Origin: a virus
IMG/VR virus record: IMGVR_UViG_3300045988_074595
Strand: one strand, 5' to 3'
DNA length: 54,117 nucleotides
Part shown: positions 2,586 through 23,082 of the stretch, one piece after another
Numbering within the stretch: the stretch's first letter is position 1
Layout: every line of letters starts with the position of its first letter
The notes under the pieces: generated by a model
Told to the model about the DNA's origin: nothing
What the model saw: only the letters and a program-made list of their open reading frames with translations
Databases searched by the model: none
Translations under genes and position numbers: made by a program

Positions 2586-4280
2586 ATGATTAAGATTGAG
2601 ATTGCAAAATCTCGGCTACATAAAAAAGGAAATAGTGCTTATATTACCATCCCAAAGGACACGGAAGACGAGGAACTATTATCCTCCCAACTAAGCACTC
2701 TTCCTAAAATAGTAGAACGAGGTTTTAATAAGTTTGAGGTTCCTAGCAGGTACCTTTTAGAGTTACTGGATGTTCTGTCTTATTGGGATGTTGAAATTAG
2801 TGGTAAGTTACCAAAGGACATTAAGGATTATATTAATTCGAAAAATAAACTGCAAACTAATATTGATTCTAGTTTTACTTTCAAAACACAGCCATTCGAA
2901 CACCAATTAGATTGTTTTAACTACGCACAGGAACATCCTAGTTTTCTACTAGGGGACGAGCAAGGATTGGGTAAGACTAAACAGGCAATTGATATTGCTG
3001 TAAGTAGAAAAGGGCAGTTTGAACATTGTCTTATTGTTTGTTGTGTAAGTGGGCTTAAATGGAATTGGGCTAAAGAGGTGGAAGTTCATTCAAACGAATC
3101 TGCTCACATTTTAGGATGTCGTGTAACTAGAACTGATTCAGTTGTAATTGATTCAGTTAGTAAACGAACAGAAGACTTACTAGCAGGACATAGTGAGTAC
3201 TTCTTAATTACTAACATTGAAACACTACGAGACAAGTCCTTTGCGGCAAGTGTTAAGGAACTTACACTAAATGGAACTATAGGGATGGTAGTGGTGGACG
3301 AGATCCATAAATGTAAAAACCCATCTAGTCAGTTAGGTAAGGCTTTGCACAATTTGAAAAGTCACTATAAACTAGCTTTGACTGGAACACCCCTACTTAA
3401 TACTCCAGTAGATACTTATAATGTACTTAAGTGGTTAGGAGTCGAAAATCATTCATTTAGTGCTTTTAAGGCTCGTTATTGTGTGTTAGATAACTTTGGA
3501 CAAGTTACTGGGTACCGGCATTTAAGTGAACTAAAAGATTTAGTGAACAATAATATGCTAAGACGTACTAAGGAACAGGTACTGGACTTGCCTCCAAAGA
3601 TAAGATCAACTGAATATGTAGACATGAACACTAATCAGCGTAAGATTTACAACGAAGTTAGGACTCAACTAATTGAGGATATTGACAAGGTAATGCTAAG
3701 TAGTAACCCACTAGCCGAAACAATTAGGTTAAGGCAGACTACAGGCAACCCAAACATCCTGACAAGTAAGTCAGTTAAGTCTGCTAAGTATGAACGAGCG
3801 TTGGAACTTATAGACGAACTAGCAGAGGATGGTAAGTCCGTTATTGTTTTCAGTAATTGGGAACATGTAGTTACTCCTTTTTACGATTTGTGCAAAGCTC
3901 GTCTTCCTACATTTTTAGTGACAGGTGAGACGAAAGACAAATTTGAAGAAATAGAAAGGTTTTTAAGTAGTAAAGGTCCATCTGTAATTTGTGGTACTAT
4001 TGGAGCATTGGGTACAGGATTTACACTAACTAAAGCCACTACGGTAATATTTTTAGACAGTCCTTGGACTAGAGGGGAAAAGGATCAAGCAGAAGATAGA
4101 GCACACCGCATTGGAGCTAAATCAACTGTAAATATTATTACCTTAGTTTGTAAAGATACAGTAGACGAAACAATTGAGGACATTGTTGCAAGTAAAGGGG
4201 AACTTGCAGACTATATTGTAGACGGTGTGCCTTTGAAAAATAAACTGTCTACAGTAATGGACTTACTGCTTAAAAGGTAA
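2586..4280 (+). CDS. SNF2/RAD54-family helicase (DEAD-like N lobe plus helicase C lobe)
   Basis: Motif I LGDEQGLGKTKQAI, motif II VVVDEIHKCKN, LTGTPLLN, motif VI QAEDRAHRIGA. Confidence 0.9.
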   Translation: MIKIEIAKSRLHKKGNSAYITIPKDTEDEELLSSQLSTLPKIVERGFNKFEVPSRYLLELLDVLSYWDVEISGKLPKDIKDYINSKNKLQTNIDSSFTFKTQPFEHQLDCFNYAQEHPSFLLGDEQGLGKTKQAIDIAVSRKGQFEHCLIVCCVSGLKWNWAKEVEVHSNESAHILGCRVTRTDSVVIDSVSKRTEDLLAGHSEYFLITNIETLRDKSFAASVKELTLNGTIGMVVVDEIHKCKNPSSQLGKALHNLKSHYKLALTGTPLLNTPVDTYNVLKWLGVENHSFSAFKARYCVLDNFGQVTGYRHLSELKDLVNNNMLRRTKEQVLDLPPKIRSTEYVDMNTNQRKIYNEVRTQLIEDIDKVMLSSNPLAETIRLRQTTGNPNILTSKSVKSAKYERALELIDELAEDGKSVIVFSNWEHVVTPFYDLCKARLPTFLVTGETKDKFEEIERFLSSKGPSVICGTIGALGTGFTLTKATTVIFLDSPWTRGEKDQAEDRAHRIGAKSTVNIITLVCKDTVDETIEDIVASKGELADYIVDGVPLKNKLSTVMDLLLKR

Positions 4281-4536: not shown

Positions 4537-4918
4537 CGGTATTAAATATTACCGCGTATCTGAGGTTTGTAAAATGGTAGAGCGTAGTCATACTACCATT
4601 ACTCGTGTTTGGTACGGAGCTGAGGAGTACGCAAAGGAACATAATATTCACTTTCCGTTCGTACTACCTACGTATCGTACAGATTTGGATAAGAAGGGAT
4701 CTCGCTATTGGAGTGAGGAAGGTGTTCAAAAACTTATTCAGTTTAGGGACAGAATCCTTCCAGGAGATTTAGCTTTTTACAATAGGGAGTATATGTGGGG
4801 AGAACGTAATAAAATTTTGAAAGACAAGCAGGATTTCAAAAAAGAACTCAGTGAAGAAATTGGGGAAGATGTAAATGAACTACTAAGGAAGGAACCTAAT
4901 AACAATGACAGTAATTAA
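4523..4918 (+). CDS. MerR/excisionase-like HTH protein
   Basis: N-terminal YYRVSEVCKMVERSHTTITRVW is typical of MerR-type HTH. AGGAG RBS; overlaps the upstream gene by 14 nt. Confidence 0.6.
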   Translation: MKEINGIKYYRVSEVCKMVERSHTTITRVWYGAEEYAKEHNIHFPFVLPTYRTDLDKKGSRYWSEEGVQKLIQFRDRILPGDLAFYNREYMWGERNKILKDKQDFKKELSEEIGEDVNELLRKEPNNNDSN

Positions 4919-5336
4919 AACAGAAGAACAATTTTTGGAACTTGTAGAAGTAGCAGCTGAACATAACTTGGAAGCTAACACACTATCTAAAACGGTCAAA
5001 GAAGAGAAAAACAACCTTAAAGAGTATATGTTAGCGGAAGACATTGAAAGTGCAGAAGTCGGTGGGTGGAGTATTTCATGTTCACCTTCTGTCAAAACAA
5101 GTATGGACGAGTCAAAAACAATCCCTATCGTTCAGTCCCTTATTGACAATGCTAAAGGTAGCGAAAAGGAAGCTTTTCAAAATCTACTTGTAATGAAGCC
5201 TACTATTAACGAAGACTTACTAGAGGACCTTATTTACGAAGGCAAAATTGATAAGGATTTGTTTAAAGAAGCTGTAATTGAGACTACATCTTACACCCTA
5301 CGCTTTAAAAAGGCTAAAAAGCGTAAAAAATCGTAA
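4905..5336 (+). CDS. hypothetical protein (weak resemblance to siphovirus Gp157-like proteins)
   Basis: 143 aa, coiled-coil N-terminus, basic KKAKKRKKS tail. The family guess is low confidence. Confidence 0.55.
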   Translation: MTVIKTEEQFLELVEVAAEHNLEANTLSKTVKEEKNNLKEYMLAEDIESAEVGGWSISCSPSVKTSMDESKTIPIVQSLIDNAKGSEKEAFQNLLVMKPTINEDLLEDLIYEGKIDKDLFKEAVIETTSYTLRFKKAKKRKKS

Positions 5337-5398
5337 TATTTGCGGCTTATTTTAAAGAGTAGGAGTAAGTTAGGGTAAATATACTAGGAGCGTAAAAC

Positions 5399-5881
5399 AT
5401 GAGCAGACAGAGGCTAACAGGTACGGATAACGACGTGTCTAAGACCAAGTTAAATTTTAAACAATTTAAAGGCATTAAGGGACTGTTTGGGACTACTATG
5501 TCCAAACTACCTAAACGGGATCAGTCTTATATTCACGTATCTAAGCAAATACAGAACTTAAGACTAGGCAAAGATTTTGAAGAAATTAGTTTGAAAGATC
5601 TTGCCTATTTCTTTATCGTTCAATTCGAATATGTTTTCGAACAAAGTTGCTTGGACTATAATTGGTTTAACTTTCAAAACACAATTAAACGAATACAGGA
5701 TTATGAACATTTTGAAAATAATGTTCAGTTAGCTAATTTTCTGTATGAAAGTATTCAAATCAGTTATGGAAAAATATACACTGATATTCCATGTCCATTA
5801 ACTTTGTCGACTTTCAAAAGAGCTTGGCTATTAGATATGCTTTTAGGCAAAAATAAACCAAAATTTTCGGGATTTTACTGA
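5399..5881 (+). CDS. hypothetical protein adjacent to the candidate origin (possible replication initiator)
   Basis: 160 aa, RBS aggag. The functional suggestion rests on position only. Confidence 0.5.
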   Translation: MSRQRLTGTDNDVSKTKLNFKQFKGIKGLFGTTMSKLPKRDQSYIHVSKQIQNLRLGKDFEEISLKDLAYFFIVQFEYVFEQSCLDYNWFNFQNTIKRIQDYEHFENNVQLANFLYESIQISYGKIYTDIPCPLTLSTFKRAWLLDMLLGKNKPKFSGFY

Positions 5882-6118
5882 TTTTAGGCAAAAAGTATAG
5901 ACTAGTTTTAGGTTTTTTTATGAACAAGTATATTTTTTCGCTTAAACAGGTGTATATCTAGTAAAAAAGACTTTTTACAAGTCATTTTTACAGCAGCTTA
6001 TAGCTGCTTAGCAAACTAGATATTTAGCTCCCCATCGGTCTATATATACAGACATTTATACATAGACAAATAACTAAATAAATAACTAAATGTAAAAATA
6101 AAAAACGAGGACTGAACA
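5882..6118. other. AT-rich repeat-dense intergenic region, candidate origin of replication
   Basis: ttttaggcaaaaa occurs twice (5843, 5883). There is an inverted repeat atatctag/ctagatat, a hairpin agcagct-tat-agctgct, the pair tatacagaca/tatacatagaca, and a 12-mer tandem. It lies between a hypothetical gene and the helicase-loader gene. Confidence 0.4.
6068..6091 (+). repeat. perfect tandem duplication of the 12-mer aaataactaaat
   Basis: Read directly: 6068-6079 equals 6080-6091. Confidence 0.95.
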
Positions 6119-6790
6119 ATGAACAATATTAGTTCTAAAACGGCTAATAATATTTGGAACAAAAAAGTTCATCAATTATTAGTTGAATCTGGGGTACCTA
6201 AAAAATATTATGTACCTCAAAAATTAGTTCGAAGGCAAGTTGATAAACAATTATGGGACTTTTTAGAGGAGTACCGTAACGATGTAGTGAATAAAGTTCA
6301 TAACGGAAATAATTTAGTCATTACTAGTCCTATTGTAGGTAATGGGAAAACTAGTTGGGCAATTAGGTTGTTACAGAGGTATATAGCTGAAACGGCACTT
6401 GACGGTGATTTAGGGGATAAGGGCGTGTTTTGTGTTTGCTCCAATATGTTAGAAATCTTTGGCGACTTTGGCTATTTTGAAACAAGTATTGAATTTTTTG
6501 ATTATCTTAATCGCCTAAAGAATTGTAAGCTATTAGTAATTGACGAAATTGGGTCAGGCAGAATTACTCCTGTATCCTATAACCATTTTTACGATTTAAT
6601 TAACTATAGGGTAGATAATGGACTTACTACTATCTACACTACTAATTATAGGGACGAACGTATTCAGGAAGTTTTAGGAGAACGATTGTATAGCCGTATC
6701 TATCACACCGCGACTGTACTAGAGTTTAGGGCTGACAATGTACGTGGTTACAGTTATGAGGAGGTGGAAAACTTTGAACGTAGAGGATAA
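6119..6790 (+). CDS. DnaC/IstB-like AAA+ ATPase (putative helicase loader)
   Basis: Walker A GNGKTSWA, Walker B LLVIDEIG. Sits upstream of the DnaB-like helicase. Confidence 0.75.
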   Translation: MNNISSKTANNIWNKKVHQLLVESGVPKKYYVPQKLVRRQVDKQLWDFLEEYRNDVVNKVHNGNNLVITSPIVGNGKTSWAIRLLQRYIAETALDGDLGDKGVFCVCSNMLEIFGDFGYFETSIEFFDYLNRLKNCKLLVIDEIGSGRITPVSYNHFYDLINYRVDNGLTTIYTTNYRDERIQEVLGERLYSRIYHTATVLEFRADNVRGYSYEEVENFERRG

Positions 6791-7013
6791 GGTAATTATT
6801 TTAGATAAAAATAAAGTGCCTATGATTTACAGAAATGTACGAGGTGAGGTTGTTAAATGTTGTATGATTACGCCTATCTCTTCTGTAACTGTAAACGATA
6901 GGATGCTACTTACTAAGCACGAGGTAATGCAGTACGATGTTAGACTGCTACAATTTGCATATTATTTAGAAAGGAAGACTCCGTATGAGTACACCCTCAA
7001 AAAAGCGTTTTAA
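6738..7013 (+). CDS. hypothetical protein
   Basis: ORF overlaps the loader gene. The more likely start is in-frame TTG 6774, 9 nt after GAGGAGG (6758-6764). Confidence 0.5.
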   Translation: MYVVTVMRRWKTLNVEDKVIILDKNKVPMIYRNVRGEVVKCCMITPISSVTVNDRMLLTKHEVMQYDVRLLQFAYYLERKTPYEYTLKKAF

Positions 7014-7290
7014 TTGCTCCGTATTTAACGCAATTTGTAAAGCTAGTGTATTTATACTACTAGGCACAGTTATCGGCATAAATGCGGCAGATATCCACGT
7101 TAAAACGGATTACAGAGCGGAGCTGGAGGACATAAAGGCAAAGTATAAAGATGCTTACTACATTACAGTTGATGATAGTGGAGCTTGGCTAGGAGATGCT
7201 CCTGGACATAAATTTCAGCCTTTATACGACCAGTACGGACAACGCATAGGAGCAAAGTTAAACAATGATACAGCTACAAGTTCTAAATAA
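6985..7290 (+). CDS. small membrane-anchored protein
   Basis: 101 aa with one N-terminal TM segment (ASVFILLGTVIGINAA). Confidence 0.55.
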   Translation: MSTPSKKRFNCSVFNAICKASVFILLGTVIGINAADIHVKTDYRAELEDIKAKYKDAYYITVDDSGAWLGDAPGHKFQPLYDQYGQRIGAKLNNDTATSSK

Positions 7291-11127: not shown

Positions 11128-13467
11128 ATGTCCCAACAAGGTTTATTTAATCTAAAAAAGAAGGGCGGAAAACGAGCGGACGGTAAGTTATTAGCTAGTA
11201 AGGATAATCGAAAAAACGCTATTGAAGTTACTTACATTAGCGGAGATCATCTAAAGGACGCTATTAACAGAGCTCGAACAATGTCTAAACGAGTTTTGAG
11301 TCATGTATTACATAGACTTGAATTAGTTGATAATTTTGAAGATTTAGACGAGTATGTAGGTTATATTATCGAAAAAGGTATCTGCGGACTTGACGTAGAA
11401 ACTAACGGCTTGGACACTATACATGATGATATTGTGGGAGTGTGTTTGTATACACCTTATCAAAAAGCTATTTATGTACCTCTAAACCACCGCAGCAATC
11501 TTACAAAGCAGCGAATTAAAAATCAGGTAGATCCAAAGGACATGGCAATGCTTTTGGAAGAAATGATTGACGAAGGTGTTCAGTTTGTTTATCATAACGC
11601 TAAATTCGATATGAAATCAATTTATTGGCAGCTGCACGTCAAAATGCCTAATCCTACATGGGATACATTTATAGCGTCAAACCTACTGAACGAAAATGAA
11701 AGTCATTCACTTAAAACCTTGCACGCTAAATATGTTAGGGAAGAACCTAACGCAGAATTGGCTAAGTTTAATGAACTTTTCAAAGGTATTCCATTTAGTT
11801 TAATTCCACCCGACGTTGCTTATATGTACGCAGCTTATGATCCGTTACAGACTTATGAACTTTACGAGTTTCAAAAATTGTACTTAACGCCGGGTACTGA
11901 GGAATGTTCGTCATGTAAACTAGAACGAGTTAGCGAGGTTTACAAAAACATTGAACTACCTCTTATTTCTGTTCTTTTCGACATGGAAATTTACGGAGTT
12001 GATTTAGATGAAGATAAGTTGGCTGAAATCCGTGAGGACTTTACGTCTAAAATGGAACAAGCTGAGGAAGAGTTTAATGAATGTGTTCAGGAATACGCAC
12101 AGGACATTGACGATTTAAGAACAACTAACTTTGAAGCTTATCGAAAACTAAGTATGGACGCAAAAGGTAATGTCACTGTTTCCATCTCAAGTTCAACTCA
12201 ATTAGCTATTCTGTTCTACGATATTTTAGGTCTAAAGAGTAATGACGCTAAATCTCCTAGAGGTACTGGAGTTGATATTGTTAGTAGCTGGGATGAACCT
12301 GTAGCTAAGGTGGTTCTTAAATATCGAAAATATGCAAAATTGGTATCTACTTACACAACTTTGGATGAACATTTAGCTAAAACTGACCACAGGATCCATA
12401 CTAACTTTAAACAGTACGGAGCTAAAACAGGTCGAATGGCTAGTGAGGGACCTAACCTCCAAAACATTCCATCACGTGGAGAGGGAGCAGTCGTTCGACA
12501 AGTATTCTCAGCTAGTCCTGGACACTATATTATTGGTAGTGACTACTCACAACAAGAGCCTCGTTCACTTGCGGAGTTGAGTGGGGACGAGAACATGATT
12601 CACGCCTATAAAGAAGGATTGGACTTGTATGCCGTTATTGGATCGAAACTTTATCATACTGACTATGAAAACTGTTTAGAGTTCTATCCGGACGGAACTA
12701 CTAATCCGGAAGGTAAGAAACGTCGAACAAGTGTTAAATCTGTGCTTTTAGGTCTTATGTACGGACGTGGAGCAGCAAGTATTGCGGAGCAAATGAATGT
12801 ATCTACTAAAGAAGCTCAACAAGTAATGACGGACTTTTTCAAACAGTTTCCAAAAGTAGCTGAATATATTGTATTTGTTCAACAACACGCTATCGATTAT
12901 GGTTATACTGAAACGGCAATGGGTCGTCGTCGTAGACTTCCGGACATGGCTTTACCTGAATATACCTTTGAATGGGTCGATGAAAGTAAGGACGTATCTT
13001 TTGACCCACTTGACTTTGACGCAGACGAAAATGAAGCCGGAGAAGTTCCTGAACATTTAGTGGAACAGTATTGGGCTGAGTTAGACAGAGCTTGGGGATT
13101 TAAGAAAAAGAACGCTATTAAAGAACGAGCTTTGCAGGAAGGTATTAAAATTACTGATAACGGAGGAAAAATCGCAGACGCAGAACGTCAATGTCTTAAC
13201 TCCGTTATCCAAGGAACTGCTGCAGATATGACTAAATACGCAATGATTAAAGTACATAGGGATAAGGAGCTTAAAGAATTGGGGTTCCATTTAATGATTC
13301 CAGTACATGATGAACTTTTAGGTGAACTCCCTAAGGAAAACGCTAAACGAGGAGCTGAACGACTTACGGAAGTTATGATTGAAGCGGCTAAAGACATTAT
13401 TAGTTTGCCAATGAAATGTGACCCTAGTATTGTAGAACGTTGGTACGGTGAGGAGATTCAGTTGTGA
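11128..13467 (+). CDS. polA: family-A DNA polymerase (Pol I-like) with 3-5 exonuclease domain
   Basis: Exo motifs GLDVETNGL, YHNAKFD and YAAYD. Polymerase motifs SDYSQQEPR, KTGRMAS..PNLQNIP and IPVHDELLGE. Confidence 0.92.
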   Translation: MSQQGLFNLKKKGGKRADGKLLASKDNRKNAIEVTYISGDHLKDAINRARTMSKRVLSHVLHRLELVDNFEDLDEYVGYIIEKGICGLDVETNGLDTIHDDIVGVCLYTPYQKAIYVPLNHRSNLTKQRIKNQVDPKDMAMLLEEMIDEGVQFVYHNAKFDMKSIYWQLHVKMPNPTWDTFIASNLLNENESHSLKTLHAKYVREEPNAELAKFNELFKGIPFSLIPPDVAYMYAAYDPLQTYELYEFQKLYLTPGTEECSSCKLERVSEVYKNIELPLISVLFDMEIYGVDLDEDKLAEIREDFTSKMEQAEEEFNECVQEYAQDIDDLRTTNFEAYRKLSMDAKGNVTVSISSSTQLAILFYDILGLKSNDAKSPRGTGVDIVSSWDEPVAKVVLKYRKYAKLVSTYTTLDEHLAKTDHRIHTNFKQYGAKTGRMASEGPNLQNIPSRGEGAVVRQVFSASPGHYIIGSDYSQQEPRSLAELSGDENMIHAYKEGLDLYAVIGSKLYHTDYENCLEFYPDGTTNPEGKKRRTSVKSVLLGLMYGRGAASIAEQMNVSTKEAQQVMTDFFKQFPKVAEYIVFVQQHAIDYGYTETAMGRRRRLPDMALPEYTFEWVDESKDVSFDPLDFDADENEAGEVPEHLVEQYWAELDRAWGFKKKNAIKERALQEGIKITDNGGKIADAERQCLNSVIQGTAADMTKYAMIKVHRDKELKELGFHLMIPVHDELLGELPKENAKRGAERLTEVMIEAAKDIISLPMKCDPSIVERWYGEEIQL

Positions 13468-13902
13468 TTGGTTTTATTACTTGCGGTAAGTCAAAACGTC
13501 CTGAACGATGTAAAGCTAAGGATTTGTATAACAGTCCTTTGTCTAAAAATAAGCAGCTTTATCTCAAAGTTTTGCACCCTGACATTGATATATATATTGT
13601 CAGCAAAACATGGGTTACTAAATTTAGACGATGTAATAGACCCCTACGACACAGAATTACCTCGTAAGGATTGCGAACAAAAAACTTTGTGGAAGACCAA
13701 AGTTTTGAAACAACTAAAACAGTTTGATAGCAACGAGGACATTATCTTTTTAGGGGCAAAACATTATTATGAACCTATAAATGAATATTTTACGAGCAGT
13801 AAAATTGCTCCTTTACTGGGTCTTACTCCTGTCTATCAAAATGTTAAATTACTTGAAGGAATAAATAGTTATTACGATGGTAAGAAGAGGAGACTTTTTT
13901 GA
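13464..13902 (+). pseudogene. conserved phage gene (CGKSKR ... ILSAKHGL..D.I.PYD pattern, DUF6884-like from memory) split by a frameshift in an (AT)5 tract
   Basis: GTG 13464 has a strong RBS (ggtgaggag) and reads MIGFITCGKSKR...HPDIDIYI. The conserved-looking continuation YILSAKHGLLNLDDVIDPYDTEL... is in the +1 frame (ORF 13468..13902). The switch point is atatatatat at 13588-13597. Confidence 0.6.
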
Positions 13903-14423
13903 AGATGAAAAAATATTTGAACATTTACGTAGCATTGTATCTTTTAGTGGGTATTTTTGGAGCTCTTGTAACGTTGTGGTTTAAGCCGTGGGATTTGGGT
14001 ATTGTATCTATCCCCCCATCTAGTTGGCTAATGGGATTTTCATTCTTACTAATTACAATTATCCAGGATAGAAGTGGATCTGTAGTAGCATCTAAAATGA
14101 TTTGGATTTTGCTTATCTGTACTGCTGTAGTTTGTGTAATTAACAGATATTCACAAATGATTGTAGTTGCAAGTGGGGTAGCATTTTTAGTTGGACAATA
14201 CGTTACTAAAATTATGTATACACTTCACGTCAACCGCACAGTAAGTTCAATGACTGGATCTGTAGTAGACGCAGCTATTTGGATTTTATTAGGACTAAGT
14301 CCTATTGGTATTGGTACTGTTCCTTGGGAAATGTACTTTAGAGCAGTTTGGGGACAGGTAGTTATTCAAATTATTATGCAAGCAATAGCTGCCCACGTAT
14401 ATAGCAAAGTAAAACAAGGATAG
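13899..14423 (+). CDS. polytopic membrane protein, YhhQ/DUF165-like putative 7-deazaguanine precursor transporter
   Basis: 174 aa with about 5 TM helices. Segments (LLITIIQDRSGSVVASKMIWILLI; LVGQYVTKIMYTL; GSVVDAAIWILLG) parallel conserved blocks of E. coli YhhQ as I recall them. Located directly upstream of queC. Confidence 0.5.
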   Translation: MKMKKYLNIYVALYLLVGIFGALVTLWFKPWDLGIVSIPPSSWLMGFSFLLITIIQDRSGSVVASKMIWILLICTAVVCVINRYSQMIVVASGVAFLVGQYVTKIMYTLHVNRTVSSMTGSVVDAAIWILLGLSPIGIGTVPWEMYFRAVWGQVVIQIIMQAIAAHVYSKVKQG

Positions 14424-14474
14424 GAAATTATTTCCAATCTTTTATTAGTTACTAAACAAAAAACAGTCAAACCG

Positions 14475-14492
14475 TGTATAATATAGTATAGA
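14475..14492 (+). promoter_or_regulatory. TGTATA-N6-TATAGA element with embedded TATAAT; promoter of the que operon
   Basis: gtgtataatatagtataga. TATAAT at 14477-14482, preceded by TG. Confidence 0.55.
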
Positions 14493-14545
14493 GATTTTAC
14501 ATTCGTTTGACCTCTATCAAACAATAAAAATAAACGGAGGTAACT

Positions 14546-15241
14546 ATGAAAGTCGTAGTTCTTTTAAGTGGAGGAGTTGACTCCACAACTTGCGCAGCTC
14601 TTGCCGTTAGTCGTTATGGCAAAGATAATGTTACAGGACTTACATTTTTGTATGGTCAAAAACATTCAAATGAAATTGAAAATGCACGCAGCGTAGCAAA
14701 GTATTTTGGTATTAAGCTAATTGAAGCTTCTGTAGACAGTGACATTTTTTCAGGATCTACATCTACTTTGCTTAAAGGTGGAGGCGAAATTTCACATAAA
14801 AGTTATGCAGAAATTATTGAACAAAATGGTGAAGGTACTGTAGACACTTACGTACCTTTTAGAAATGGTCTAATGTTGTCACAAGCCGCAGCTCTTGCTT
14901 ACAGTTCTACAGCGGACGAGGTTTGGTACGGAGCCCACGCAGATGATGCAGCAGGGGCAGCTTATCCGGATTGTACTCCAGCATTTTACACTTTTATGGA
15001 CAAGGCTATTTATTTCGGTACCGGCAAAAAAGTTCACTTAAATGCTCCACTAATTGAGTTGAACAAATCTCAAGTGGTAGCCGCTGGGCTAAAAGTAAAT
15101 GCTCCTTACGAACTAACTCGTTCGTGTTACGAGGGACATAAATATGCTTGTGGTAAGTGTGCTACTTGTATTGATCGTTTGAAAGCTTTTGCAGATAACG
15201 GTATTAAAGATCCTGTTCCTTACGAAGTGGAGGTACAATAA
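14546..15241 (+). CDS. queC: 7-cyano-7-deazaguanine (preQ0) synthase QueC
   Basis: PP-loop VVLLSGGVDSTT and C-terminal zinc cysteines CGKCATCIDR. 231 aa. Confidence 0.92.
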   Translation: MKVVVLLSGGVDSTTCAALAVSRYGKDNVTGLTFLYGQKHSNEIENARSVAKYFGIKLIEASVDSDIFSGSTSTLLKGGGEISHKSYAEIIEQNGEGTVDTYVPFRNGLMLSQAAALAYSSTADEVWYGAHADDAAGAAYPDCTPAFYTFMDKAIYFGTGKKVHLNAPLIELNKSQVVAAGLKVNAPYELTRSCYEGHKYACGKCATCIDRLKAFADNGIKDPVPYEVEVQ

Positions 15242-15747
15242 TGCGAGTTTGTAAACAATTTAGTTTTGACGCAAGTCACCAATTAGTTGGTCATTTTGGG
15301 AAATGTGCAAATTTGCACGGACATACTTACAAGCTGGAAGTTTCACTTACTGGAGCAATTCACGAAGAAGGATCTAGTGAGGGTATGGTAGTAGACTTTT
15401 ATCATGTTAAGAAGTACGCAGGTGAGTTAGTAGATCGTTTGGATCATGCGTTCCTTATGCGAGGTAATGAACCTGCCGCAGAAGTAGTTGAGACTAAACG
15501 AGTTAAGTTTGGTTTTAGAACTACGGCAGAAAACATGGCTAAATTCTTAGCATGGTCACTTGGAACTTTAATGCAACCTTATGCTCGTATTGATTTTATT
15601 CGACTTTGGGAAACACCTACAGGATATGCAGAGTGTGACTACTACGAAATTTTCAGTGACGAGGAAATTGAACAATATAAAAAAGTTCAGTTCTTTGACA
15701 AAGACGAGTGTGTGACTTTGGAGGATATTTTAAATGCCAACAAATAA
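15241..15747 (+). CDS. queD: 6-carboxy-5,6,7,8-tetrahydropterin synthase QueD
   Basis: FSFDASHQL ... CANLHGHTYKLEV is characteristic of the PTPS/QueD family. Confidence 0.9.
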   Translation: MRVCKQFSFDASHQLVGHFGKCANLHGHTYKLEVSLTGAIHEEGSSEGMVVDFYHVKKYAGELVDRLDHAFLMRGNEPAAEVVETKRVKFGFRTTAENMAKFLAWSLGTLMQPYARIDFIRLWETPTGYAECDYYEIFSDEEIEQYKKVQFFDKDECVTLEDILNANK

Positions 15748-16531
15748 ATACAATCAACCTGAACGTGGTAATATTAGAATTAACACGCGAGGCAAAGACA
15801 CTATGCCGGTAATGGAAATTTTTGGACCAACTATCCAAGGAGAAGGAATGGTAATTGGTCAAAAAACTATTTTCATTCGAACTGGTGGATGTGACTATCA
15901 TTGTAATTGGTGTGACTCAGCGTTCACTTGGAACGGTACTACAGAACCAGAATACATTTCAGGTAAGGAAGCAGCAGACCGAATTTTAGCTTTAGCTTTT
16001 GACGAAAAGGGTCAACAGATTTGTAACCATGTTACTTTGACAGGAGGTAACCCTGCTCTAATTAACGAACCTATGGCAGAAATGATTTCTATCCTAAAAG
16101 CTAAAGGGTTTAAGTTTGGACTTGAAACACAAGGAACACGTTTTCAAGAATGGTTTAAAGACGTTAGTGATATTACACTAAGTCCCAAACCACCTTCAAG
16201 TGGAATGAAAACAAACATGCGTATTCTTGAAAAAATTGTCGAACGCCTAAACGAGGAAGAACTCGATTGGTCGTTTAAGGTTGTTATTTTCGACGAACAA
16301 GATTTAGCTTACGCTCGTAACTTGTTTAAGGAGTTCGAAGACAAACTTCGTCCTGTTAACTATTTGTCAGTAGGTAATGCTAATGCGTACGAGGAGGGCA
16401 GTATTAGTGGACGTTTACTTGAAAAACTTGGATGGTTGTGGGATCAAGTCTATAAGGATCCTGCCTTTAACAATGTTCGTCCATTACCGCAGTTACATAC
16501 ACTTGTATATGATAATTTAAGAGGAGTATAA
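15734..16531 (+). CDS. queE: 7-carboxy-7-deazaguanine synthase QueE (radical SAM)
   Basis: EIFGPTIQGEGMVIGQKTIFIRTGGCDYHCNWCDS (CxxxCxxC cluster). GGAGG lies 9 nt before ATG 15734; an alternative start is at MPVMEIF. Confidence 0.9.
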   Translation: MPTNKYNQPERGNIRINTRGKDTMPVMEIFGPTIQGEGMVIGQKTIFIRTGGCDYHCNWCDSAFTWNGTTEPEYISGKEAADRILALAFDEKGQQICNHVTLTGGNPALINEPMAEMISILKAKGFKFGLETQGTRFQEWFKDVSDITLSPKPPSSGMKTNMRILEKIVERLNEEELDWSFKVVIFDEQDLAYARNLFKEFEDKLRPVNYLSVGNANAYEEGSISGRLLEKLGWLWDQVYKDPAFNNVRPLPQLHTLVYDNLRGV

Positions 16532-16534
16532 TTT

Positions 16535-17170
16535 ATGATTACAACAGATCAACTGAACAAAATTTCAAACCAACTAGGAAAATCTTCACACGTACAATTA
16601 TCGGTAGCGGATAATACTACTATCGTAAAAGCAGCGGAAGCTTTTCAGAATCTTTTGGGTGTACTTGGGGAAGATCCTGAACGTGACGGACTACAAGAAA
16701 CACCGTTCCGCTTTATTAAGGCTTTGGCAGAACATACTACAGGATATCGTGAAGATCCTGCTCAACACCTTACTAAGACATTCGACGTGGATCACAATGA
16801 CATTGTTTTAGTTAAGGACATTCCATTCAACTCACTATGTGAACACCATTTAGCTCCGTTTGTAGGCAAAGTGCACATTGCATACATTCCAAGTGATAAG
16901 ATTACAGGACTTTCAAAATTTGGACGAACTGTAGAAGGGTACGCAAAACGATTGCAAGTGCAGGAACGTCTTACACAACAAATTGCAGACGCTATTCAGG
17001 AAACACTTGATCCACAAGCGGTAGCCGTTATTATTGAAGCAGAACATACTTGTATGAGTGGACGTGGGATTAAGAAGCACGGAGCTACTACAGTTACTAG
17101 CACTATGCGTGGACTGTTTAAGGAAAATGCGACTGCACGTGGAGAGGTATTGTCCTTGCTTGGTAAGTAG
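16535..17170 (+). CDS. folE: GTP cyclohydrolase I FolE
   Basis: Active-site block SLCEHHLAPFVGKVHIAYIP and QVQERLTQQIA. Confidence 0.92.
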   Translation: MITTDQLNKISNQLGKSSHVQLSVADNTTIVKAAEAFQNLLGVLGEDPERDGLQETPFRFIKALAEHTTGYREDPAQHLTKTFDVDHNDIVLVKDIPFNSLCEHHLAPFVGKVHIAYIPSDKITGLSKFGRTVEGYAKRLQVQERLTQQIADAIQETLDPQAVAVIIEAEHTCMSGRGIKKHGATTVTSTMRGLFKENATARGEVLSLLGK

Positions 17171-17178
17171 GAGGCTAC

Positions 17179-18114
17179 ATGAGTATTGATTTATATTTTG
17201 CAGGTAACGGTGCAAAGGATATTGAAGCCTTCCTTTTGAAAAATAAAGCTAACCGACTATTTACTCAAAAATTCGAACGTAACTCAACTGGAAAAGCATG
17301 GTTTGAGTATATGGACGAAAATCCTGGGTTTACTGGAAAGGTGTTTGTGGACTCTAGTGCGTATGGAGCTTGGACACGGAACATTGACATTGATTTAGAT
17401 GAATATATTGATTATCTAAATGCTAACGACGGTAGGTTTTCAGTTATTGCGTCACTGGACGTAATTCCTGGGTCTAAAGGACACTTCGCTACTCGTCAGC
17501 AGGTACAGGAAGCTAGTGAACAATCTTGGGAAAATTACCTTTATATGTATGACCGAGTACTTGATAAGGAGAAAGTCATTCCTGTTTTCCACGTTGGCGA
17601 ACCTTGGGAGTATTTAGATAAAATTCTAAATCATGTCCATAAAGATGGATCTCAAGTTCAGTATATGGGACTAGGAGGATTAGTAGGTGTTCACAGCAAC
17701 GACCGAATTAAATGGATTGAACAAGTGTTCGATGTTGTTAAGCAAAGTAACAACCCAAATATTAAGATTCATGCTTTTGGGGTTACTAGTTTGAAAATTT
17801 TAGAGCAGTTCCCATTTACATCTGCGGACTCTACTACCGCAGTGCTTACGGGAGCAATGGGAGGTGTGTTGACACCTTACGGTAAAATTAGTTTTGCCCA
17901 AAAGGACGGAGGAGTGAATGCTTTTTACGCACAACCTCAACAGGTACAGGAAGCAGTCCTTAATTTAGTTAAAGAGGCAGGATTTGATTTTACAGTTGAA
18001 GAGATTGTAGACAACTATATTGCACGTGAACTTCTTAACTGTCAGTACTTACTAGATTGGGCAGCAAGTTACAAATATAACCCTCCTAAACATAAACAAT
18101 CCAGATTGTTTTAA
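17179..18114 (+). CDS. dpdA: DpdA-like (tRNA-guanine-transglycosylase superfamily) DNA 7-deazaguanine transglycosylase
   Basis: 311 aa, last gene of the que cluster. N-terminal LYFAGNG...VFVDSSAYGAW resembles phage DpdA proteins (recalled). Confidence 0.7.
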   Translation: MSIDLYFAGNGAKDIEAFLLKNKANRLFTQKFERNSTGKAWFEYMDENPGFTGKVFVDSSAYGAWTRNIDIDLDEYIDYLNANDGRFSVIASLDVIPGSKGHFATRQQVQEASEQSWENYLYMYDRVLDKEKVIPVFHVGEPWEYLDKILNHVHKDGSQVQYMGLGGLVGVHSNDRIKWIEQVFDVVKQSNNPNIKIHAFGVTSLKILEQFPFTSADSTTAVLTGAMGGVLTPYGKISFAQKDGGVNAFYAQPQQVQEAVLNLVKEAGFDFTVEEIVDNYIARELLNCQYLLDWAASYKYNPPKHKQSRLF

Positions 18115-18117
18115 ATA

Positions 18118-18152
18118 GAACGACCTTATTAAATTAGGGTCGTTTTGTTGTT
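18118..18152 (+). terminator. rho-independent terminator after the deazaguanine island
   Basis: Stem aacgacc / ggtcgtt with an 11-nt loop, followed by ttgttgttt. Confidence 0.7.
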
Positions 18153-21547: not shown

Positions 21548-22711
21548 ATGAAACTAGAGCAGATAATGCAGGACTGGAACAAGGATTCTAAAGCGTTAGT
21601 AGCCTCACACGGTTTGGAACGTGAGGACCTACCTCGTATCCCATTTTCTAGTCCTATAATGAATTACCAAACATACGGAGGTTTGCCTCGTAAACGTGTG
21701 ATTGAGTTCTTCGGTCCCGAGAGTAGTGGGAAGACTACCTCAGCGCTGGATATTGTTAAAAATGCTCAATACGTGTTTCAATTAGAGTGGGAGCAGTTGC
21801 AGGAAGATTTAACTACAGAACTAAAGGAACTTAAAAACAAAAAGGGTTCACACAAAACAAGGATGAAGGAAATCCAAATGCAGTTGGACGCTCATAAGGA
21901 ACCTTTGAAAATTGTATACTTGGATCTTGAAAATACATTAGACACGGATTGGGCTAAAAAGCTGGGTGTAGATGTTGATAACTTGTGGATTGTGCGTCCC
22001 GAACATAACTCGGCAGAGGAAATTCTGCAGTATGTAATTGAGATGTACGATACTGGAGAAGTAGGACTTATTGTTTTAGACTCACTACCTTACATGGTTA
22101 GTCAAAACCTGTTGGACGAGGAGCTTACTAAAAAAGCGTACGCAGGTATCTCAGCTCCTCTTACAGAATTTAGTCGCAAAGTGACTCCTTATTTGACTAA
22201 GTACAATGCCATCTTTTTAGGTATTAATCAAATTCGTGAGGATCTTAACAGTATGTATTCTACTTATTCAACACCCGGTGGTAAGATGTGGAAGCATGCT
22301 TGTGCCGTCCGTATTAAGTTCCGTAAGGGAGACTTTATTGACGAGAAGGGGGATAAGGTTAACCGAACAGCTCGTAATCCTGCCGGTAACATGGTAGAAG
22401 CGTTTGTGGAGAAAACAAAGGCATTTAAACCTGACCGTAAGTTAGTTCAGTATACTTTGTCATATCACGAAGGTATTCAAGTAGAAAGTGATCTTGTAGA
22501 TGTAGCTATTGAATATGGATTTGTAGCAAAAAGCGGAGCATGGTTTACTATTCTGGATCCTGACACAGGTGAACTTCTACAGGACGCAGAGGGGGAAGAT
22601 TTAAAATTTCAGGGTAAGGCTAAAATTGTTCAGCGTTTAAGGGAAGATGACGAAGTGTTTGACCAACTTATGACTAACGTACATGAGGCTATCACTTACG
22701 AGGAAACCTAA
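21548..22711 (+). CDS. recA: RecA-family recombinase
   Basis: EFFGPESSGKTTSALD Walker A, IVLDSLPYM, and RecA-like length with an insertion after the P-loop. Confidence 0.88.
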   Translation: MKLEQIMQDWNKDSKALVASHGLEREDLPRIPFSSPIMNYQTYGGLPRKRVIEFFGPESSGKTTSALDIVKNAQYVFQLEWEQLQEDLTTELKELKNKKGSHKTRMKEIQMQLDAHKEPLKIVYLDLENTLDTDWAKKLGVDVDNLWIVRPEHNSAEEILQYVIEMYDTGEVGLIVLDSLPYMVSQNLLDEELTKKAYAGISAPLTEFSRKVTPYLTKYNAIFLGINQIREDLNSMYSTYSTPGGKMWKHACAVRIKFRKGDFIDEKGDKVNRTARNPAGNMVEAFVEKTKAFKPDRKLVQYTLSYHEGIQVESDLVDVAIEYGFVAKSGAWFTILDPDTGELLQDAEGEDLKFQGKAKIVQRLREDDEVFDQLMTNVHEAITYEET

Positions 22712-23082
22712 TGAACCAACGCAGCCTATTTAGCAAACCTACTGGACCTAAAGTAAGAAGGGTTCCTACACGAAGCCGGAAGGCTTCTTTTAATACAGAA
22801 ATTGTTCGGAAAATCGAACACAGGCAAAGACAAATATTAGTTCACTCTAACCTATATTACCGCCAAGGTACAAACCTAGTTGAGGACCATGTGTATGACA
22901 GGTGGGCACACGAACTGTATGATTTAATTGTTCAGTATCCTAACGAGTTTAAACAAACTGAATGGTTTACTGCTTTTCAGGATTACGACGGTAATACAGG
23001 CATGGGACTTCCTTACACGGATCCATGGGTAGAGGGAACAGCATTACACCTAGTTAAGCTATTTGGAGGAGGAATCACTTGA
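22711..23082 (+). CDS. hypothetical protein resembling the Ia (N-terminal) domain of NAD-dependent DNA ligase
   Basis: LVHSNLYYRQGTNLVEDHVYDRWAHELYDLIVQYPNEF parallels the LigA Ia pattern YY..P.isD.eYD.L..eL..lE..yP. Confidence 0.4.
   Translation: MNQRSLFSKPTGPKVRRVPTRSRKASFNTEIVRKIEHRQRQILVHSNLYYRQGTNLVEDHVYDRWAHELYDLIVQYPNEFKQTEWFTAFQDYDGNTGMGLPYTDPWVEGTALHLVKLFGGGIT

Follow-up and report, generated by a model that had tools for sequence, protein, structure and literature searches.

Genes at the locus

We analysed IMGVR_UViG_3300045988_074595, a viral DNA record of 54,117 nucleotides from IMG/VR (the window), and examined in it a group of genes for 7-deazaguanine modification of DNA. Nearly all genes in the window, a phage genome, lie on the plus strand. 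Behind the gene for a family-A DNA polymerase (PolA; 11128-13467, taken from the reading-frame list) we found, all on the plus strand, a frameshifted gene of the DUF6884 family (13464-13902), a gene for a membrane protein of 174 amino acids (aa; 13899-14423), genes for QueC (14546-15241), QueD (15241-15747), QueE (15734-16531) and FolE (16535-17170), and a gene for a 311-aa phage DpdA (17179-18114). Genes for a sliding clamp (DnaN), a Cas4-like exonuclease and RecU followed from 18206. The core of this group, a biosynthetic pathway plus modification of DNA, can be assigned with high confidence. The layered statement that includes the DUF6884 gene and the transporter, namely that a virulent streptococcal phage of the Dp-1/MS1 type has the whole region as its module for DNA hypermodification, is probably correct.

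The initial annotation, made from the letters of the window, had placed the open reading frames (ORFs) that it named at the same coordinates and on the same strand as we found them. The motifs that it quoted were also present in the translations: SGGVDS and CxxCxxC (as CGKCATC) in QueC, HGHTYKLEV in QueD, CDYHCNWCDS in QueE and CEHHLAPF in FolE. Its coordinates took in 13464-13902 as well, but the DUF6884 gene located there went undescribed.

Synthesis and probable insertion of preQ0

QueC (synthase of 7-cyano-7-deazaguanine, preQ0) matched PF06508 (E 1e-55) and TIGR00364 (168 bits; cut-off 150.3); it has 231 aa and carries no glutamine-amidotransferase fusion. QueD (6-carboxytetrahydropterin synthase) matched PF01242 (PTPS; 1e-29) and phrog_2389 (3e-30), and its score on TIGR03367 was just under the cut-off (88.7 against 89.25 bits). 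QueE, a radical S-adenosylmethionine (SAM) 7-carboxy-7-deazaguanine synthase, scored 276 bits on TIGR03365 (cut-off 206) and matched phrog_2076 at 3e-60, and FolE (GTP cyclohydrolase I) matched PF01227 (3e-72) and TIGR00063 (230 bits; cut-off 181.6). Judged by these profile matches, FolE, QueD, QueE and QueC make up the full pathway from GTP to preQ0.

The product of 17179-18114 matched phrog_887, 'queuine tRNA-ribosyltransferase', at 8.5e-60, and gave weak matches to bacterial DpdA models (Pfam 0.0094, PADLOC 1.2e-4, NCBIfam 2.3e-4). Neither its single sequence nor a 69-sequence profile reached a tRNA-guanine transglycosylase (TGT) in the PDB. The alignment of the 69 homologous sequences was used for an AlphaFold2 model, which had a mean predicted local distance difference test score (pLDDT) of 94. 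Foldseek analysis of this model against the PDB returned tRNA-guanine transglycosylases for all of the top 50 structures (E 3.5e-8, probability 1.0, TM-score about 0.6). The predicted structure therefore contains the TGT fold on which the initial annotation had let its assignment of this gene depend, and the FolE-QueD-QueE-QueC-DpdA series was upheld by the profile searches together with the fold. On this structural model, the protein is a TGT-fold phage DpdA, of the DNA guanine transglycosylase family.

A TGT-like gene next to que genes can also be read as a system that modifies tRNA, of the queuosine type, to tune translation and leaves phage DNA alone, with the membrane protein serving host-type queuosine salvage. 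This was the original view for phages Dp-1 and Rosebush (cited in PMC5699537), and the label 'queuine tRNA-ribosyltransferase' of the TGT-like gene agrees with it. However, Dp-1 DNA contains 2'-deoxy-7-aminomethyl-7-deazaguanosine (dPreQ1), and the protein family has been renamed DpdA (PMC6884629); the window protein is 43% identical to the Dp-1 DpdA, gp7, without gaps over all 311 residues; and QueA, QueG and QueH were not detected among the window ORFs scanned. We consider the tRNA reading very improbable.

Enzymes that would convert preQ0 further were sought in the rest of the window. A Pfam scan of 40 ORFs outside the structural region, several short ORFs excepted, found no QueF, QueT, canonical Vut_1, glutamine-amidotransferase (GATase) domain or ArcS elsewhere in the window, and a tblastn search of the window with Dp-1 QueF matched only the T-fold of FolE. 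The initial annotation, which had noted no QueF, ArcS or GATase domain, was borne out on this point. A ParB-like domain (DpdB) was likewise not found among the ORFs scanned.

A frameshifted DUF6884 gene

A GTG codon at 13464, which overlaps the PolA stop codon as GTGA, opens a frame of 67 codons whose product begins MIGFITCGKSKRPE. The N-terminal 44 codons of the DUF6884 gene are in this frame, and the remainder is in the +1 frame and extends to 13902. The 144-codon frame at 13468-13902 matched Pfam DUF6884 from residue 39 on only. When the two frames were joined at the tract GATATATATATTG (13587-13599) by addition of one AT unit, a 146-aa protein was obtained that scored 92.1 bits against PF21818 (E 4e-26), compared with 62.6 bits for the unrepaired product; its residues 3-118 aligned to positions 2-121 of the 135 in the profile. 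The repaired protein contains both DUF6884 motifs as defined in PMC11701544, CxxxK as CGKSK and LSAxxG as LSAKHG. The 144-aa ORF with a TTG start at 13468-13902 was considered as the true product and rejected: its N-terminus consists of out-of-frame sequence, and the ORF is without the invariant Cys and Lys. A relation of DUF6884 to YaaA is indicated by a Pfam match (E 0.0017) and by PMC11701544, and an AlphaFold2 model of the protein had a pLDDT of 89.

In a 52-kb contig from another sample (L005), which is 94% identical in nucleotide sequence over this region and has its genes in the same order, the 146-aa gene is intact. The window gene is 2 bases shorter, with (AT)5 at 13588-13597 (plus strand, in the D-I-Y-I-L codons) where L005 has (AT)6. 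Between the two, 30 codon differences were synonymous and nine non-synonymous, and they were spread across both halves of the gene. As the change is mostly synonymous in both halves, the DUF6884 gene was under purifying selection until recently.

DUF6884 in viral 7-deazaguanine clusters

Starting from an alignment of the DUF6884 family of the window, we retrieved 67 loci from IMG/VR and labelled their neighbours by iterated profiles. Clustering at 60% identity gave 19 clusters of viral DUF6884 proteins. In 16-17 of these 19, que or dpdA genes were present within 10 kb, mostly directly adjacent; the window gene lies 0.6 kb upstream of queC. The gene orders varied: PolA-DUF6884-(gp72-like)-QueCDE-FolE-(Vut_1)-DpdA, DpdA-DUF6884-QueC-QueD-QueE-FolE, DpdA-QueC-DUF6884-QueD-QueE-FolE, Vut_1-QueC-DUF6884-DpdA, and a three-gene DpdA-DUF6884-Vut_1 module. 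Many MS1-like metagenomic contigs (L012-L027) carry DUF6884 at the same position as the window. An isolated phage also has the gene in such a setting: Fusobacterium phage phiFN37 (L078, OR492271) encodes at 4706-7015 a ParB-like protein, DpdA, DUF6884 (annotated 'hypothetical protein') and a queuosine precursor transporter (YhhQ).

QueF, the enzyme that acts on the nitrile of preQ0, was not found together with DUF6884. It was present in none of the 67 DUF6884 loci, and DUF6884 was present in none of the 38 viral loci retrieved with Dp-1 QueF. The two genes also occupy the same slot: DpdA-DUF6884-QueC-QueD-QueE-FolE-DnaN in L030 corresponds to DpdA-QueF-QueC-QueD-QueE-FolE-DnaN in L103, with flanking proteins 43-67% identical, and DpdA-QueF-Vut_1 in L089 parallels the DpdA-DUF6884-Vut_1 modules elsewhere. 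Because DUF6884 replaces QueF and never coexists with it, these results are most simply explained if DUF6884 is a nitrile-directed tailoring enzyme.

Two other features were observed among these contigs. The row of genes in phiFN37 resembles a miniature dpdB-dpdA-dpdC-yhhQ, and no preQ0 synthesis genes are annotated in the 12-kb stretch. In two Dp-1-like contigs (L025:11886-13463, and L026 at the same position), a 2.2-kb insert separates QueC from QueD; its products are a small membrane protein and a cell-wall-anchored surface protein of 437 aa, of the LPxTG type (LPKTG). We rejected this insert as a source of a further tailoring gene, given the LPxTG surface protein that it encodes; it has the appearance of a moron within the operon for modification.

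Possible function of DUF6884

Bacterial DpdC converts DNA containing 2'-deoxy-7-cyano-7-deazaguanosine (dPreQ0) to DNA containing dADG (2'-deoxy-7-amido-7-deazaguanosine) in vitro, independently of DpdA and DpdB (PMC10164549). Its family has been given as DUF6884 (PMC11888242, a 2025 preprint) and as DUF328/YaaA (PMC5699537, PMC12839542). Among 31 aligned relatives of the window protein, 29 of them viral, 23 matched PADLOC DpdC models at E 0.01 or below (best 7e-9). In the records inspected, DUF6884 proteins were annotated as 'hypothetical' or 'YaaA'. A search for a bona fide DpdC sequence on plasmids returned only generic 'DUF6884 domain-containing protein' annotations. We tentatively predict that DUF6884 is a DpdC-like enzyme that converts dPreQ0 to dADG, and place this prediction slightly below an even chance.

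Several observations weigh against this assignment. In PADLOC, the window protein scored best on PDC-M57A (1.8e-29) and matched DpdC only at E 0.0026 over 27 residues; it had no NCBIfam match. Foldseek found no significant PDB neighbour for the DUF6884 model; the top 50 structures did not include YaaA (5CAJ). The viral loci had been retrieved via two conserved peptide patterns and represent one DUF6884 clade, not the whole family. The presence of dADG in phages that carry DUF6884 is a prediction. The nearest relatives in cells, with about 32-47% identity to the query that was used, lie outside dpd islands. In 63 of 80 cellular loci (L118-L197; also L006-L010) they are paired with a GIY-YIG nuclease (Pfam GIY_YIG_3), in an operon or as a fusion, and this pairing suits a reader of DNA lesions or a glycosylase no less than a nitrile hydratase. 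Many of these loci are in DPANN archaea and in Candidate Phyla Radiation (CPR)/Patescibacteria with tiny genomes. DpdA was present in only four of the 80 loci, all of them phage-like modules in metagenome-assembled genomes (MAGs) of Clostridia.

The same observations bear on a second explanation, in which DUF6884 belongs to the 7-deazaguanine system without being an amidohydrolase and is a base-flipping reader or DpdA accessory, a glycosylase-like enzyme, or a decoy against host nucleases of the DUF6884-GIY-YIG type. The Pfam authors proposed DNA binding and base flipping for DUF6884, and Bacillus subtilis YfjM binds DNA lesions (PMC11701544). All 31 aligned relatives, 29 of them viral, scored far higher on PDC-M57A (best 6e-60) than on DpdC, and the cellular DUF6884 and GIY-YIG units, which make up most of the sampled cellular loci, correspond to PDC-M57. 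Phage and cellular proteins share the invariant residues C, K, LSAK and Y. The cellular proteins precede or are fused to GIY-YIG, whereas the phage proteins never are, save for fusions in L066-L070, which are without que genes. A general DpdA helper, however, should also accompany clusters with QueF, and it did so in none of the 38 and none of the 67 loci; moreover, DUF6884 takes the slot of a nitrile-directed enzyme, and the one member of the family with known biochemistry has the nitrile of dPreQ0 in DNA as its target (PMC10164549). A role of this second kind is thus rather unlikely.

A third explanation separates the gene from DNA modification altogether and takes it as a general DNA-repair or anti-defence gene in the early replication region, here a decaying pseudogene. 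DUF6884 is not present in Dp-1 and MS1, it is frameshifted in the window and in several relatives, it is common on plasmids and in cells that have no que genes, and at least two viral clusters have no que gene nearby. Its adjacency to que and dpdA genes nevertheless recurs in many gene orders in unrelated phages, including the three-gene DpdA-DUF6884-Vut_1 modules. Decay also agrees poorly with the mostly synonymous change in both halves relative to the intact orthologue and with the greater number of intact forms, as described below. We therefore regard an unrelated gene as improbable.

The (AT)n tract in relatives

The (AT)5 at 13588-13597 is the sole one in the 54-kb window, where 0.14 would be expected by chance. 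The gene was in frame with (AT)6 in L005, which corresponds to P0027, and in four MS1-like contigs (L012, L016, L019 and L023; L024 is the same as L023 at this site), and it was also in frame in P0028. It was out of frame with (AT)5 in the window, which is identical to P0029 in ENA, in L011 from IMG/VR (91% identical at the DUF6884 gene) and in P0030, from a MAG in nr (92%). In P0031, likewise out of frame, the tract is longer and was read from the protein sequence as (AT)8. The I-Y-I-L codons were also the place where two further genes were broken, each at an (AT)5: that of the MS1-like contig L027 (10001-10440), and that of L045 (218-640), which is from an unrelated lineage and encodes a DUF6884 protein 38% identical. 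Lineages in which I-Y-I-L is encoded without an AT repeat showed no such breaks. The intact form is the larger cluster, with 57 member sequences in P0027 against one or two for each shifted form. A different kind of break was observed in L075:3393-3860, where DUF6884 is split by a tandem duplication of about 27 bases just past the LSAK motif.

A frameshift of this kind could in principle be an assembly or sequencing error; in that case the real phage would have an intact gene, and the product of DUF6884 (dADG, if the enzyme is DpdC-like) would be present in its DNA and not dPreQ0. The defect amounts to exactly one unit in a simple repeat, and all motifs and both halves of the gene are otherwise intact, which favours this reading. 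Nevertheless, distinct sequences that were assembled independently share the out-of-frame state (the window, identical to P0029; L011; P0030), P0031 has a longer tract, and L027 and L045 were broken at the same site. In our judgement, a one-unit error is unlikely to recur in separate assemblies of distinct strains. An artefact is accordingly an unlikely explanation, and the frameshift is likely to be real. These results point to real slipped-strand variation at a hot spot, either as selected on/off switching or as recurrent decay.

A membrane protein distantly related to YhhQ

The 174-aa membrane protein (13899-14423) matched phrog_4899 at 4e-31. It is 66% identical to gp77 of MS1 and 41% identical to gp72 of Dp-1, the only homologues that we found in GenBank phages. 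On Pfam Vut_1 (PF02592) it scored 23.7 bits, under the gathering cut-off of 27.2; of its orthologues, Dp-1 gp72 passed (29.9 bits) and MS1 gp77 failed (22.4 bits). A tblastn search with the Vut_1 protein of MS1 gave no match to the membrane protein even at E 10. In a profile-profile comparison (hhalign), however, the membrane protein family matched twelve phage Vut_1 proteins with a probability of 96.6% and E 5.3e-10 over 130 columns, covering residues 29-162. The kinship with YhhQ/DUF165 proposed in the initial annotation thus held at the profile level and was below threshold for the single sequence. On this evidence, the protein is a compact and divergent YhhQ/Vut_1 (COG1738) homologue, a distant one whose homology is seen at the profile-profile level only.

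The protein has 26 close homologues. A profile of the family retrieved 36 proteins at E 0.001 or below from 1.84 billion representatives, and this search did not pull in the canonical YhhQ family. Full-length relatives are mostly 166-192 aa long. E. coli YhhQ has 221 aa and six transmembrane segments, and gp5 of MS1, a canonical Vut_1 protein with 223 aa and six annotated transmembrane segments, is consistent with these figures. The window protein does not have the canonical size and topology (about 220 aa, six transmembrane segments); a crude Kyte-Doolittle scan indicated about four to five hydrophobic segments. No Vut_1 structure was found in the PDB.

Dp-1-like contigs carry different sets of transporters: a gp72-like gene alone (the window, L005 and L011), a gp72-like gene with Vut_1, Vut_1 alone, a gp72-like gene with QueT, or QueT alone. 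At least one of the three types was present in every Dp-1-like contig whose whole cluster lay inside the fetched locus, and the gp72-like gene is the only one of them in the window. As every complete cluster keeps one of the three, we infer a role in import, and we lean, by a modest degree, towards the membrane protein being a putative transporter of 7-deazapurine precursors. The great distance of the gp72-like family from YhhQ counts against this role, since it has only 36 relatives and few of these are of canonical YhhQ length. In relation to E. coli YhhQ, a preQ0 importer, the window protein has a homologous membrane domain and is linked to 7-deazaguanine genes; it differs in being shorter, in scoring below the Pfam threshold and in belonging to a separate small family.

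Seven MS1-like contigs (L013-L015, L017, L018, L020 and L021) have DUF6884 and a canonical Vut_1 gene without a gp72-like gene. The two YhhQ-type genes appear interchangeable inside the MS1-like phage group.

The initial annotation had called a precursor transporter in such a phage unusual, which was not supported: the GenBank record of Dp-1 describes gp72 as a DUF165-superfamily membrane protein, Dp-1 has QueT and MS1 has Vut_1, and some phages were already known to encode YhhQ homologues (PMC6884629).

Transcription signals

A sigma-70-like promoter, TAAACA-18-TATAAT, was found on the plus strand upstream of queC (14453-14482), with 10 of 12 matches to the consensus. The promoter scan overall gave 27 sites where 27.0 were expected in shuffled sequences; as the scan was not enriched, this call rests mainly on its position and on conserved annotation, the MS1 and Dp-1 records having a promoter at the equivalent place ahead of the que cluster. 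A terminator-like hairpin on the plus strand (18114-18149), with a 15-bp stem and then a U-rich tail, directly follows the DpdA stop codon. It was overlooked by a simple terminator scan and recovered by folding that stretch, with a folding energy of -19 kcal/mol and a z-score of -6.15, and none of 200 shuffled sequences folded as well. A terminator is annotated there in MS1 and Dp-1 too. Both positions agree with those given in the initial annotation, which had also placed the membrane protein gene inside a block with its own promoter. This promoter lies downstream of the membrane protein gene, and a weak hairpin is present 3' of that gene. Although part of the module, the DUF6884 and membrane protein genes lie one transcription unit earlier, following the gene for the DNA polymerase.

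Comparison with known systems

MS1 (KY629621; QueC-QueD-QueE-FolE-Vut_1-TGT) is the closest isolate and the only GenBank phage with nucleotide similarity to the window, 74% over QueC-QueE. It shares with the window the lack of QueF and the gp77 membrane protein; unlike the window, it has a canonical Vut_1/YhhQ gene (142 bits) between FolE and DpdA and is without DUF6884. Dp-1 (NC_015274; gp72 and gp1-gp7) has PolA, the gp72-like protein, QueC, QueD, QueE, FolE, DpdA, DnaN, a Cas4-like exonuclease and RecU in common with the window, and in the same order. It differs in having QueF (gp1; Pfam QueF, 7e-33), in having QueT between FolE and DpdA and in the lack of DUF6884, whereas the window has neither QueF nor QueT and carries DUF6884 between PolA and the membrane protein gene. 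In the linear records of both phages, whose ends are arbitrary, PolA and the membrane protein are at the right end, and the que genes are at the left together with DpdA, DnaN, the exonuclease and RecU. Dp-1 DNA contains dPreQ1 at 3389 per 10^6 nucleotides, and Streptococcus pneumoniae is without preQ0 synthesis genes (PMC6884629).

The window resembles the Dpd system of Salmonella Montevideo in that a TGT-family enzyme inserts preQ0 in DNA and a DUF6884/DUF328 protein is encoded in the locus; bacterial dpd islands sometimes also embed preQ0 synthesis genes and yhhQ (PMC10164549, PMC5699537, PMC11888242). The differences are that the window has no DpdB (ParB-like ATPase) among the ORFs scanned and no restriction genes dpdD-K, and that the phage DUF6884 protein is a stand-alone domain of 146 aa with weak similarity to DpdC-specific models, compared with about 319 positions in the PADLOC DpdC models. 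In contrast to the bacterial restriction-modification system, its role in the window would be anti-restriction. The window also corresponds to a phage group of Hutinet 2019 (CAjan, Rosebush), with the full preQ0 pathway, DpdA and no preQ0-converting enzyme (QueF, QueF-L, ArcS or Gat-QueC) found.

Predicted base in the phage DNA

In the mechanism that we propose, FolE, QueD, QueE and QueC would make preQ0 from GTP in a host unable to do so, and the gp72-like YhhQ homologue would probably add salvage of exogenous precursors. DpdA, judged by its fold, its family and the Dp-1 data, would swap guanine in the phage DNA for preQ0. Because no QueF, ArcS or Gat-QueC was found in the window, the nitrile is expected either to stay, as dPreQ0, or to be hydrated to the amide dADG by DUF6884, as by bacterial DpdC; speculatively, the invariant Cys7 and Lys11 (CxxxK) and the LSAK motif could act via a thioimidate intermediate. 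From the established pathway and Dp-1, the resulting 7-deazaguanine base would be expected to shield the phage DNA from host restriction.

In this genome we expect dPreQ0, because the DUF6884 gene is out of frame with five AT units in place of six. The initial annotation had also predicted dPreQ0, and this base is still the likeliest here; it had overlooked the DpdC-family gene, and the prediction stands only on account of the frameshift. Siblings with (AT)6 and an intact gene may contain dADG.

The core island with a YhhQ-like transporter is of an already known kind, an ordinary member of a well-described anti-restriction system. The new elements are the recurrence in phage 7-deazaguanine clusters of a DpdC-family gene that excludes QueF and fills its slot, and the repeat-mediated frameshift. 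No report linking phage DUF6884 to 7-deazaguanine clusters was found in the literature searched, whose coverage was incomplete. The origin of dADG in phages has been stated to be unexplained (PMC8306585), and ArcS side activity or spontaneous oxidation have been offered as explanations (PMC6884629). A candidate dADG enzyme makes this question directly testable and would improve the prediction of modified bases from phage genomes, which is relevant to phage therapy, restriction mapping and nanopore base-calling.

A further proposal, which we put forward as speculative and doubtful, combines two statements: that the stand-alone DUF6884 of phages is a counterpart of DpdC, converting dPreQ0 to dADG as an alternative to QueF, and that in several lineages it is also an (AT)n contingency locus. 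If this is true, slippage in the (AT)n of the conserved I-Y-I-L codons would switch DUF6884 on and off, and a phage population would come to hold dPreQ0 genomes and dADG genomes side by side. This could be a hedge against restriction systems and modification-dependent nucleases or glycosylases, and would be an unusual form of epigenetic bet-hedging. It would follow that the widespread cellular pair of DUF6884 and GIY-YIG may be a reader of that modified base too.

Other genes in the window

Three genes outside the module were also observed. The endolysin (410-1261) consists of Amidase_5 and a zoocin A target-recognition domain, and no choline-binding repeats were seen in it. The Dp-1 lysin Pal binds choline. 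The domains of the window endolysin hint at a non-pneumococcal streptococcus as host. Upstream of the replication genes, an SNF2-family helicase (2586-4280; PF00176, 5e-33) follows a DUF5655 protein (1917-2582). Between the RecA and clamp-loader genes, 22711-23082 encodes a stand-alone protein of 123 aa whose sole match is to domain Ia, the N-terminal, NAD+-binding part of NAD-dependent DNA ligases (PF22745, 1.9e-26).

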